Positions 17,528 through 23,400 of a DNA stretch of 64,000 bases are shown here, piece by piece. Source of the DNA: an uncultured delta proteobacterium (lineage in GTDB: Bacteria > Desulfobacterota > Desulfomonilia > Desulfomonilales > Desulfomonilaceae); NCBI GenBank assembly GCA_963760985.1, contig CAVXFM010000010.1, forward strand, positions 388,430-452,429, in the 5' to 3' direction. The stretch's first letter is position 1. Each line of letters opens with the position of its first letter. Position numbers and translations under genes: made by a program. The notes under the pieces are model-generated. The model worked only from the letters and a program-made list of their open reading frames with translations. It was not told the origin of the DNA and made no database searches.

Positions 17528-18064
17528 TCAGCCGCGGAGCGTGAGTGCTTGAATCAATTTCCGGAGTTCCTGCAAGGACCCTTCGGAGAAATCGACAATT
17601 TCGAAGCCGGCCGAAGTCTCTTGCCGGTCGGTCTGCCGTCGCACCCACCTGCACTGGGCTTCCAGAACAAACGGATGGATGTCTGCAAAGTCGTCCGCCT
17701 GCAGGACCAGCGTCTTGCAGTCACCAACTATTACCGAAAGTCCAGCGACCTGTAAACCCTTTTCCGTGATGTCCCTCACTTGTCCCTCGACCGTGAGGTT
17801 CTCCGCGCCGTACACAGGCAGTCTCACAAACACGTAATTCCGCGTGATTTCTCTTTGCGTGTCCAGCCCTACGCCATCGTCAGCAACCTGCACCCGGTAA
17901 TCGAGTTCACTTTCTCTGACGGCTTTCGCCTCGACGAGCTTCACGAAGATACTCTCCAGGCCCTGTGAGGAAAGGCGGTACTTCTCTCTGAGTTGCAAAT
18001 TTGTGAGACCGGCTCTTATGTCGCTGACCACGTCCTTTGCCCTGACTCTCCGTTTCTCGGTCAT
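17528..18064 (-). CDS. PilZ-like c-di-GMP receptor candidate with N-terminal LxEKYxLS motif
   Basis: ATG 18064 is preceded by a GGGGAGGGAG Shine-Dalgarno. REITR ... 21 aa ... DITEKG fits the PilZ RxxxR / (D/N)x(S/T)xxG spacing. A second RWVRR...DFSEGS half is present. N-terminal DIRAGLTNLQLREKYRLSSQGLESIFVKL motif. Confidence 0.5.
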   Translation of the reverse strand: MTEKRRVRAKDVVSDIRAGLTNLQLREKYRLSSQGLESIFVKLVEAKAVRESELDYRVQVADDGVGLDTQREITRNYVFVRLPVYGAENLTVEGQVRDITEKGLQVAGLSVIVGDCKTLVLQADDFADIHPFVLEAQCRWVRRQTDRQETSAGFEIVDFSEGSLQELRKLIQALTLRG

Positions 18065-18090
18065 AGGGTACGCGCTCCCTCCCCTCTTGC

Positions 18091-19086
18091 TCATTGAACC
18101 CACTTTTCGGGAATAGCTCCGCTTGCTTCATGGTTCCCCATATGACGCGGGTCTGACTCCGACGCTTGCCACACCTGGACCAGGTTGCGGCCTAGTTGTT
18201 TTGCCCGATAAAGCGCCTGATCGACTCCGCGAACCACTGCATCCATATCCAACTTTGCTTTCCCCTGGACGGACGCGATTCCCAAACTCATGGTGACCGA
18301 AAAAACCCCTTCCGGAGTCACGAGCGGCCTCTCGGACAAGGATTGGCGCAGTCGCTCTGCCATGTCCTGTGCACAGTGCTGATCGCACCCGGGCGACACC
18401 AAGAGAAACTCTTCTCCCCCATAACGCCCTACGACATCGTAGGACCGTACATGGGAAACCATCCGTGCGGCCACTTCTCGCAGTACGGCATCCCCTGCCA
18501 GGTGCCCGTACGTGTCGTTGATTCGCTTGAAGTGATCCAAGTCTGCGATAATGATCCCCACGGACGTGTTTTCCCTCAGGGAACGCTCCAATTCTCTGCG
18601 CAGCACGTCCATGACAGCCCTCCTATTCCAGAGACCCGTGAGGGGATCGTGTGAGGCTTGATACTCCGAGGCTGACAAAGCAGAGACAAGGTCCTGTTGG
18701 AGCTGAACTATGCGGGAACCTGCTCTTACACGCACATCAAGCTCATGGGCATCGAAAGGTTTGACGATGTAATCGTCCGCTCCTGCTTCCAGGCCCTCTA
18801 TCACATCTTCTTTCCTCGACTTCGCGGTTAGGAGGATGACGTACGTGTACGGCTGTTTTCCCATTTTCCGAATCTCGCGGCATAACGCCACGCCATCCAT
18901 GCCGGGCATCATCCAATCGAGAACCACCAGATGAGGCGCATCTTCTCGGTTCAGTATTTCCCACGCCTGGGAGCCGTCTGCGCAGGACACTATCTCGTAC
19001 CCCCATTGGGTGAGGCGTGCTTCGAGCAGCCTTCTAGTGATACAGTCGTCTTCCGCTACCAGTATTCTCAAGGTGTGCCTCCTCAC
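18091..19086 (-). CDS. response regulator-diguanylate cyclase (REC-GGDEF, PleD-like)
   Basis: Receiver ([14 protein letters not shown]...VVLDWMMPGMDG) plus a GGDEF domain with an intact GGEEF active site and RxxD-like I-site context. Confidence 0.9.
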   Translation of the reverse strand: MRRHTLRILVAEDDCITRRLLEARLTQWGYEIVSCADGSQAWEILNREDAPHLVVLDWMMPGMDGVALCREIRKMGKQPYTYVILLTAKSRKEDVIEGLEAGADDYIVKPFDAHELDVRVRAGSRIVQLQQDLVSALSASEYQASHDPLTGLWNRRAVMDVLRRELERSLRENTSVGIIIADLDHFKRINDTYGHLAGDAVLREVAARMVSHVRSYDVVGRYGGEEFLLVSPGCDQHCAQDMAERLRQSLSERPLVTPEGVFSVTMSLGIASVQGKAKLDMDAVVRGVDQALYRAKQLGRNLVQVWQASESDPRHMGNHEASGAIPEKWVQ

Positions 19087-22000: not shown

Positions 22001-22471
22001 GCCTGCTTTCTGGGATCGCAGGAGAGATTGTCGAAAATGGCCAGTGACCTCTGCAACGTCGTCTGGGTGGATGATTTCTTGGAACAGCTTTGGCCTGGCG
22101 AGAAACTCCTCCGCAGCGTACCCTGTCACTGCTTTGCATGACGGAGAAACCCATAGGAACGTTCCGTCCACATCGGTCCACGATTCCCAGTCATGGGTGA
22201 AGTCCGCGACCGTCCGGTAACGCTTTTCGCTTTCCATCAAGGCCAGTTCTGTGGCCCGTTGGCGAGCAAAAGTCCTTGAGACGATCAGGCCAAACAATAA
22301 AAAACACAGCGTCACCACAGACCGCAGGTACAGCGCGTGGGGAGACACATCGAGGATCAGGGAATTCCAGAAGGATTTTTCGTGGAACGCGACTGATTCG
22401 AGAATCGCGTCACTCACACAAATCAGGAGAAAGAATGCTACTGCCAGACCAATTGCCCTACATGGTTTCAT
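19034..22471 (-). CDS. membrane-anchored multi-PAS hybrid histidine kinase with two receivers and an Hpt domain; at least 3 apparent frameshifts
   Basis: ORF 20270..22540 has 2 TM helices, 3 PAS domains, HisKA ([14 protein letters not shown]) and the HATPase N/G1 boxes, then loses homology after STSRK. The G2 box ([26 protein letters not shown]) sits in a second frame near 20290-20400. Two REC domains lie in ORF 19491..20333. The REC end plus Hpt (HSLKGS) lie in ORF 19034..19651. Confidence 0.7.
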
Positions 22472-22695
22472 AGCGAGTTCTCCGTTACGAAAGACGTTCC
22501 GCATCTCCCCCCCCTGCGATTGCGGTGACCGTGGGATCACCGGTTTCGGAGTACCTGTTCATATCCTTCAATTTCATCCCTCGTGCGACTTGAACGAACG
22601 CAGCAGATCTGAGAGAGTCGTCCTTCCCGGGAGGTCCCTCCGTCAGCCACGCGGGAGTCGGGAAGACCATGATTCCATGAAGCCACGAGTCGCTT

Positions 22696-23400
22696 TTATT
22701 CCCAGACCGCTGGTCCGCCGCGTTTCTTATCAGTCTTGACTTTGGCGAATACGACTCCGCAATACGGGCACGAATCAGCATATTCGTCAGGTCTCGGTCT
22801 TCCGCATTTTGGGCAGGGCCCCTCGGAGTGTCCGCGCCGAGATCCCTGTGAACCGGCTCGTGGATCTTCGGAGGGGAAAGGCCCGTCCACCACCCACGAT
22901 TCCCGTTTCGCGGCGAGCGAGCGGACAGGCACGTCCTCGATCTTGCGGTAATCCTCCAGTGCGCCGGACAATTCTTGGGTGAGATCGATCGCGGTGGAAT
23001 CTTCGATCTCAGGAAGTTCCATCTGGTGCAGTTCGGCACACTTCCGCTCCCGGTGGTGGAATTCGTATTCACTCAGCACGCGTTTTGCCAGGAGTTGCTC
23101 GTACACACTCTTCAGGAGTTCCGGACTGAGCGAATACCTTTTCATGAGCGCGAAATCGTCCGGGGTCGCACGAAAGGTTTTAATGAAATCTTTGGCACTA
23201 ATGGAGATCCTTTCGGACACAGGACAGCCATTGGTGGGTTCCGCCTCGTAAGCAGGGGTTGAAGTTAATTTCCGAACCGCAGATTTCACTTTTGGCAAGC
23301 TGCGCACCGAGAGTCCGTATTTCTCCATGAGTGCGGCGTCGGCCATGCCTGCCTCGATATCCGCGAGGATCGCCCTGGCGCTAATGCGGATGTGCTTCAT
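22696..23400 (-). CDS. zinc-ribbon protein with two copies of the LMEKYGLS motif (uncharacterised)
   Basis: ATG 23400 with GGAGGG upstream. ILADIEAGMADAALMEKYGLSVRSL and FIKTFRATPDDFALMKRYSLSPELL repeats. C-terminal CPKCG...CPYCG zinc ribbon. Confidence 0.5.
   Translation of the reverse strand: MKHIRISARAILADIEAGMADAALMEKYGLSVRSLPKVKSAVRKLTSTPAYEAEPTNGCPVSERISISAKDFIKTFRATPDDFALMKRYSLSPELLKSVYEQLLAKRVLSEYEFHHRERKCAELHQMELPEIEDSTAIDLTQELSGALEDYRKIEDVPVRSLAAKRESWVVDGPFPSEDPRAGSQGSRRGHSEGPCPKCGRPRPDEYADSCPYCGVVFAKVKTDKKRGGPAVWE

Follow-up and report, generated by a model that had tools for sequence, protein, structure and literature searches.

A PilZ protein and a zinc-ribbon protein of an uncultured Desulfomonilaceae bacterium share a small module, a probable divergent relative of the DUF433 helix-turn-helix family

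What is the sequence motif that a PilZ protein and a zinc-ribbon protein have in common in a 64,000-nucleotide stretch of DNA from an uncultured delta proteobacterium of the Desulfomonilaceae (GenBank assembly GCA_963760985.1, contig CAVXFM010000010.1, forward-strand positions 388,430 to 452,429; the whole stretch is hereafter called the window, and its first letter is position 1)? The original prediction, made from the letters of the window, had described an unrecognised 35-residue motif, present once in the PilZ protein and twice in the zinc-ribbon protein, which was thought to resemble the MshEN repeats that bind cyclic di-GMP (c-di-GMP) and to hint at a second kind of c-di-GMP effector or at a helix pair that binds a partner. 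PilZ is the most widespread c-di-GMP receptor, yet most PilZ proteins that are small or stand alone have an obscure output. Our analysis indicates that the motif belongs to a module of about 50 residues that is very probably a three-helix helix-turn-helix (HTH) and a divergent relative of DUF433/COG2442 in both fold and family. We do not regard the module as a novel type of c-di-GMP receptor.

The shared motif proved to be real. All three quoted motif strings were found exactly on the minus strand, at residues 25-56 of the PilZ open reading frame (ORF) and at residues 24-58 and 85-117 of the zinc-ribbon ORF. A hidden Markov model (HMM) and translation both confirmed one copy in the former protein and two in the latter, and the module coordinates in the window were confirmed by direct translation (Table 1). 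In pairwise BLASTP, the N-terminus of the PilZ protein aligned with the zinc-ribbon protein at E = 4e-7, and the two zinc-ribbon copies aligned with each other at E = 8e-6. The motif is short, and the pairwise identity among the window copies was only 38-43% over 28-34 residues, which would fit an explanation by chance or by the compositional likeness of amphipathic helices. Against that explanation stand the results of an independent HMM, which was made from 370 modules of other proteins, each less than 50% identical to the window copies. This HMM matched the three window copies with independent E-values of 4e-21, 7e-14 and 1e-12 (bit scores in Table 1), and no further match, even at E<10, appeared when all 1,073 ORFs from the six frames of the window were searched. 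Orthologues of both window proteins conserve the motif. Moreover, a search of 1.84 billion representative proteins with a profile of 37 non-redundant copies revealed a family that, clustered at 50% identity, has at least 2,684 clusters (E<=1e-3); 1,324 of these were found at E<=1e-10, and 122 still at E<=1e-30. On the strength of the independent HMM and the size of the family, chance similarity was discarded as having practically no probability, and the sequence comparisons place the likeness of the window copies beyond chance.

The unit is longer than the 35 residues originally described. The consensus of 452 copies, RRISAKEAVRDIRSGMDDAALMEKYGLSAKGLQSLFDKLVAAGLITQ followed by xxELxx, indicates a module of about 47-52 residues. 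As had been predicted, databases do not recognise it: neither Pfam-A (2025) nor NCBIfam (2026) has a model for the motif, and a literature search with the motif strings returned no match.

AlphaFold2 models were made for residues 1-128 of the zinc-ribbon protein (14-sequence alignment) and for the whole PilZ protein (32 sequences, predicted local distance difference test (pLDDT) score 82). Three helices were predicted for each module: residues 8-16, 21-28 and 34-47 in the first zinc-ribbon copy, residues 69-78, 82-88 and 93-105 in the second, and residues 9-17, 22-29 and 33-45 in the PilZ copy, which has an additional short helix at 51-54. The linkers between modules and ahead of the PilZ barrel were modelled with low confidence. 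The models have the three helices and the tight turn between helices 2 and 3 of an HTH fold, and they form a three-helical bundle like that of the DUF433 structure PDB 2GA1. The best fold matches of the module were HTH and winged-helix domains, and the nearest of these were DNA binders. A profile search of PDB sequences returned the winged helices of FeoC (E = 0.003) and AraR and, at E = 0.07, the DUF433 portion of VapB49 (5AF3); the alignment with VapB49 revealed a common signature, RAG...YG[VL][TS]xxxL. Another PDB match, 8vd6 'CAP REPEAT' (E = 2e-4), is a de novo designed repeat protein (PMC12339374) and was set aside as uninformative.

DUF433 was the only Pfam family matched recurrently. 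It was matched by 27 of 104 multi-module proteins at E<=1e-3 (best E = 1e-10) and by 14 of 37 single modules (best E = 8e-4). One protein, P0048, scored 36.7 bits, compared with the Pfam cut-off of 23.6 bits; multi-copy proteins exceed this cut-off solely by summing weak matches. The zinc-ribbon protein of the window scored 13.6 bits, and the PilZ protein of the window gave no match to DUF433. Several members of the family are labelled 'DUF433 family' by the Joint Genome Institute pipeline, while NCBI annotates them as hypothetical, PilZ, PAS or ankyrin proteins. Residues 64-132 of the zinc-ribbon protein (23005..23211) weakly matched phrog_7919 (E = 5.9e-4), a phage family without known function, and this match is probably due to a common HTH fold; the anti-phage and phage libraries gave nothing apart from this match.

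DUF433/COG2442 is described as a three-helical DNA/RNA-binding bundle found in antitoxins associated with PIN toxins (PMC2701414). Examples of this family (PF04255) are Ava_0674 (PDB 2GA1), Synechocystis VapB10 and M. tuberculosis VapB49 (5AF3), which represent the VapB-type antitoxin HTH. The present module differs from these proteins in that it forms N-terminal tandem arrays of up to seven copies fused to PilZ, HD-GYP, ankyrin, zinc-ribbon or membrane domains, and in its own conserved motif, DIRxGMxDxxLMxKY. The module genomes sampled also belong to Desulfomonilales and Syntrophales, and not to cyanobacteria or Chloroflexi. No PIN toxin neighbour, as known for DUF433, was present among the called genes of loci L001, L003-L005, L007 and L036 and of the window cluster. 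Two three-helix HTH units on a flexible linker are likewise found in Paired, POU, mariner/SETMAR transposase and double homeodomain proteins, but those are eukaryotic or transposase families without sequence similarity to the module. We take the family to be a branch of a known superfamily of small HTH domains that has diverged and has expanded in one lineage, and what is new is the frequent architecture in which one or more HTH modules are joined to PilZ.

The resemblance to MshEN was not borne out. MshEN consists of a pair of motifs, each 24 residues long, RLGxx(L/V/I)(L/V/I)xxG(L/V/I)(L/V/I)xxxxLxxxLxxQ, which lie five residues apart and make up a 53-residue four-helix unit; a relaxed form of the motif is [RKPN]hGxxhhxx[GAS]hhxxxxhxxxhxx[QNKRYWST] (PMC5013675). 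This arrangement was not found in the module, which repeats with a period of 57-61 residues including a disordered linker, compared with 24+5 residues in MshEN, and which is a three-helix HTH unit, whereas MshEN is built of two hairpins that make a four-helix bundle. The Pfam model T2SSE_N (PF05157) was matched neither by the two window proteins (E<=1) nor by 37 single modules (E<=10). The module profile retrieved no N-domain of MshE, PilF, PilB or XpsE from the PDB sequences at E<=10, and this negative result is valid because a consensus MshEN query retrieved 5HTL, 6F8L, 8PFA and 2D27 from the same library. None of 196 module-bearing proteins matched the relaxed MshEN motif, and the N-domains of MshE or GspE were absent from both lists of fold matches to the module.

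The likeness between the two consists of their helical nature, their tandem occurrence, their c-di-GMP contexts and a local stretch of the form 'LVxxGhhxxxxL'. When the module was compared by hhalign with a profile made from five genuine pairs of MshEN motifs, only a local match of 16 columns was obtained, with a probability of 53%, in which the end of helix 3 and the next turn (KLVxxGhhxxxEL) were paired with the MshEN core 'LLVxxGhhxxxxLE'. The match had no counterpart of RLG or LxxxLxxQ and lay outside the region indicated by the original prediction. An alignment of two modules gave a still lower probability of 29%. With the Pfam, PDB sequence, fold, motif and hhalign comparisons all negative or marginal, homology to MshEN was rejected, and the MshEN reading of the original prediction fails by its own standard.

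These comparisons also bear on the idea that the module has a binding site of its own for c-di-GMP or some other nucleotide messenger, either in the manner of MshEN or newly formed by D-I-R-x-G-M-x-D and K-Y, so that tandem copies would be a second class of receptor. The strong association of the module with c-di-GMP proteins would suit this idea, as would the conserved Arg and Asp in the loop between helices 1 and 2 and the 16-column match of the module tail to the MshEN core. Binding in the MshEN fashion, as had been suggested for the motif, is contradicted by the missing sequence and fold features of MshEN, since the positions of RLG and LxxxLxxQ are unconserved in the module and both the repeat period and the three-helix unit are different. 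As for a new site, helix caps and salt bridges can account for the conserved polar residues, and module-bearing proteins already carry an intact PilZ site. We regard a nucleotide-binding role of the module as highly improbable.

The PilZ part of the 178-residue protein was modelled as six strands and a helix (residues 161-174), and its Foldseek matches were MotI, Alg44, MapZ and YcgR, with E-values of 1e-5 to 1e-3. Both motifs of a canonical PilZ domain were found (Table 1); in the second, Thr replaces the Ser of the PilZ consensus [D/N]xSxxG, which is kept in some homologues. These features point to PilZ as the putative c-di-GMP sensor of the protein, with a predicted site formed by the linker and the barrel. 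With this predicted site intact, no second one has to be sought in the N-terminal module. About 25 disordered residues connect the module to the barrel. The two-domain PilZ effectors YcgR, PlzD/VCA0042, MotI and MrkH likewise have an N-terminal domain, a flexible RxxxR linker and a canonical C-terminal PilZ barrel, but their N-terminal domains are PilZ-like beta-barrels (PilZN/YcgR_N; bioRxiv 10.1101/814665), whereas those described here are alpha-helical HTH modules. The HTH-PilZ architecture is not mentioned in the survey of PilZ architectures (bioRxiv 10.1101/814665). The deltaproteobacterial PilZN6 of Galperin's survey was ruled out as the same module, because PilZN6 is described as a predicted beta-barrel.

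Copy number was counted in 195 proteins (149 top representatives and 46 window homologues): two modules were found in 94 proteins, three in 61 and one in 27, and few proteins carried four, five or seven. Among the best 150 representatives, proteins had one to seven copies, usually at the N-terminus. A scan of one genome per species revealed at least 28 loci, and the locus counts that follow refer to the matches listed. The 28 loci came from Desulfomonilaceae/Desulfomonilales, from Syntrophaceae/Syntrophales and from metagenome-assembled genomes (MAGs) labelled Thermodesulfobacteriota or 'delta proteobacterium', with the exception of two loci in one MAG labelled Pseudomonadota. Module ORFs stood side by side, two to five together, in 13 of these loci, and one MAG had at least seven module ORFs across three loci.

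PilZ was the commonest fusion partner; it was present in 22 of 49 module ORFs in the loci when a subfamily HMM was used (19 of 49 with Pfam) and in 44 of 149 top representatives. Two proteins, P0150 and P0176, had the architecture PAS-PAS-2xmodule-PilZ. In locus L023 (5983-7722), a 580-residue module-REC-PAS-HD-GYP protein was found, in which the module is fused directly to a regulator of the c-di-GMP phosphodiesterase type. Further partners were ankyrin repeats, double zinc ribbons, a transmembrane segment with a PQQ propeller, and a CAAX protease, and C-terminal hydrophobic hairpins resembling membrane anchors were present in 45 of 149 top representatives.

The suspected link to c-di-GMP signalling was thus confirmed by the fusions to PilZ and to REC-PAS-HD-GYP. 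A PilZ, GGDEF or HD-GYP domain lay within 6 kb in 16 of the 28 loci, but a GGDEF or HD-GYP gene lay within this distance in only four, and distant module-PilZ genes adjoin no c-di-GMP enzymes and sit in unrelated neighbourhoods. The module is therefore linked to c-di-GMP mainly by domain fusion and not by operon context. A conserved neighbourhood of c-di-GMP enzymes was rejected as a trait of the family, as it was found only in the close relative L001.

In the two-domain PilZ effectors YcgR, PlzD and MrkH, binding of c-di-GMP at RxxxR and PilZ repositions the domains. By analogy, the hybrid histidine kinase of the window would control the neighbouring REC-GGDEF and REC-HD-GYP proteins, which would carry out synthesis and breakdown, respectively; c-di-GMP would bind to the linker with its RxxxR motif and to the barrel of PilZ, in the manner of YcgR and MrkH, and this binding would reposition the HTH module and alter its engagement with the target. 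The zinc-ribbon protein, which has two modules and no sensor, would engage a like target without depending on c-di-GMP, in the role of partner or competitor. From the analogy with known effectors, the module would, on balance, be an output gated by PilZ. The whole chain, in which the DUF433-like HTH module is the output or targeting part, PilZ the sensor, and DNA or another nucleic acid the target, stands at an even chance. The nature of the target, taken by itself, can be named only tentatively. DNA or another nucleic acid is slightly favoured because of the fold matches, the precedent of DUF433 and the places where basic charge is found, namely the N-terminal arm (+0.72) and helix 3 (+0.79), while helix 2 is acidic (-0.47); this charge pattern is supportive but weak.

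A number of observations weigh against such a chain. The mean net charge of the module is only +1.15, and of the 452 copies 170 have no net positive charge, being neutral or acidic. Paralogues show a fairly conserved helix 3 and not a diversified one. Arrays of up to seven modules are unusual among bacterial transcription factors, as are the C-termini resembling membrane anchors and the joining of modules to PQQ propellers, a CAAX protease and ankyrin repeats. A search for operator motifs upstream of 61 module genes revealed no k-mer above the shuffled null. The model of the tandem modules was of modest quality (pLDDT 72, 14 sequences), and its Foldseek matches were non-significant (E>1), with bipartite HTH DNA-binding domains at the head of the list. 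Single modules all fell below the DUF433 cut-off. The surroundings of the distant module-PilZ genes, where c-di-GMP enzymes do not adjoin, count on the same side.

A protein partner is a close second to DNA as the target, because the arrays are long, membrane and scaffold fusions occur, paralogues cluster, helix 3 is conserved, the charge is modest and no upstream motif was detected. It is conceivable, though we give it less than an even chance, that the HTH-fold module is a protein-protein docking domain that tethers PilZ receptors, the HD-GYP enzyme, ankyrin scaffolds and membrane paralogues to a common partner or to each other. In that case, c-di-GMP on PilZ would control assembly, and the zinc-ribbon protein would be a partner of the PilZ protein. 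DUF433 antitoxins dock PIN toxins, and the HTH of RodZ binds MreB. VapB10 (COG2442) combines both activities, binding its own promoter and forming a complex with its PIN toxin (PMC3834315). The two to seven modules of an array sit on flexible linkers, the domains joined to modules range from ankyrin repeats and beta-propellers to a CAAX protease and membrane anchors at the C-terminus, and all three helices are strongly conserved among the paralogues of one genome. Stand-alone module proteins of 80-107 residues were found beside module-PilZ genes in L020, L030 and L032. The clustering of module genes, with two or more and up to five ORFs in a locus, also suits docking, although tandem duplication alone can produce it. 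The nearest fold matches are DNA binders, however, and the distribution of charge suits a DNA-facing helix 3 and N-terminal arm. A wider version, in which the module is a lineage-specific docking domain instead of a DNA binder and wires many Desulfomonilales and Syntrophales paralogues, zinc-ribbon proteins included, into one assembly or localisation network controlled by c-di-GMP, seems unlikely, and a variant with a new site for a nucleotide messenger on the module is less likely.

A docking network, if true, would provide an output logic for PilZ signalling that is so far undescribed; otherwise, the findings would hold little surprise for specialists. With the preferred HTH assignment, a large family that lacks a Pfam or NCBIfam model can be described, in which the constant element is a small HTH module and the domain most often joined to it is PilZ. 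Its members are candidates for DNA-binding or adaptor proteins that respond to c-di-GMP in sulfate-reducing and syntrophic organisms of the Deltaproteobacteria type. Annotators gain a domain model to build and PilZ outputs to choose for tests, and a false lead is removed, as the motif is not a second MshEN-like receptor.

The genes for the two window proteins belong to a minus-strand group, counted as seven genes, that extends from 15.4 to 23.4 kb. The c-di-GMP neighbourhood that the original prediction had noted was found here, with REC-GGDEF, REC-HD-GYP, single-domain REC and PAS hybrid histidine kinase proteins (Table 1). The cassette of zinc-ribbon, kinase, REC-GGDEF, module-PilZ, REC and REC-HD-GYP genes is syntenic in the relative L001, in which the PilZ orthologue is 81% identical at the protein level. 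The zinc-ribbon gene starts with an ATG at 23400, with a ribosome-binding site, GGAGG, 8 nt upstream. Its first module has a divergent helix 3 (LSVRSLPKVK) that is nevertheless kept across orthologues, and its second module is divergent in the region of helix 1 and the following loop (FRxxPDDFALM). The cysteines of the zinc ribbon, C196, C199, C211 and C214, are conserved. Between the second module and the zinc ribbon lies an acidic stretch (residues 116-193, 22822..23055) with a segment conserved among orthologues, ELxxMELPEIxxSTAVDLTQ, which may be a short linear interaction motif.

Table 1. Positions of the module copies, their genes and the neighbouring signalling genes in the window.
Feature	Coordinates	Strand	Details
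178-residue module-PilZ gene (P0015)	17528..18064	-	Start ATG is residue 14 of a 191-residue ORF; 32 homologues, mostly 178 residues
Module copy of the PilZ protein, residues 5-55	17900..18052	-	RRVRAKDVVSDIRAGLTNLQLREKYRLSSQGLESIFVKLVEAKAVRESELD; 70.3 bits with the independent HMM
Canonical PilZ beta-barrel and C-terminal helix, residues 66-178	17531..17869	-	Pfam PilZ 22.8 bits, cut-off 22.5
RxxxR motif, REITR	17840..17854	-	R71 and R75 invariant in 32 homologues
DxTxxG motif, DITEKG	17756..17773	-	D98 nearly invariant and G103 invariant in 32 homologues
234-residue zinc-ribbon gene (P0001)	22696..23400	-	Two modules, conserved acidic linker and C-terminal zinc ribbon
First module copy of the zinc-ribbon protein, residues 4-50	23251..23391	-	47.2 bits; aligns to HMM positions 2-35 only
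Second module copy of the zinc-ribbon protein, residues 65-115	23056..23208	-	42.9 bits
C-terminal zinc ribbon, CPKC-x11-CPYC, then basic tail	22735..22821	-	Weak Pfam Zn_ribbon_3 and DZR matches
PAS-PAS-PAS-HisKA-HATPase-REC-REC-HPt hybrid histidine kinase	19037..22471	-	
REC-GGDEF response regulator (diguanylate cyclase)	18091..19086	-	Directly upstream of the PilZ gene; GGDEF E = 2e-46; Response_reg E = 2.5e-29
Single-domain REC protein, 124 residues	17022..17396	-	Downstream of the PilZ gene; L001 orthologue also 124 residues
REC-HD-GYP response regulator (c-di-GMP phosphodiesterase type)	15433..16482	-	HD_5 E = 4e-32

Several minor observations were made in other loci. Arrays of up to five module paralogues on the same strand were present at L020 (233-4195 and 9048-9611), L009 (5947-8811) and L025 (1183-7410), and in L025 a GGDEF gene lies inside an array of three module-PilZ genes. 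Upstream of the 2xmodule-PilZ gene P0039, MreB/HSP70-like, DUF1257 and DUF2997 genes were found in a single instance (L004, 4356-6767).

In the window, the hybrid kinase is split over three frames, with switches near 20447, 20299-20318 and 19627-19632, and its counterpart in L001 is a single ORF of 1144 residues. The sites of the switches are not long homopolymers; assembly indels or a pseudogene could explain them. An ankyrin-repeat gene downstream of the cassette (13633..14689, plus strand) shows a frame change near 14010 relative to its 359-residue L001 orthologue; in other proteins, ankyrin repeats recur as a partner fused to the module. The gap between the zinc-ribbon gene and a PadR gene (23400..25531) is about 2.1 kb, compared with only 543 bp in L001, and it contains a 399-residue ORF on the plus strand (23823..25022).

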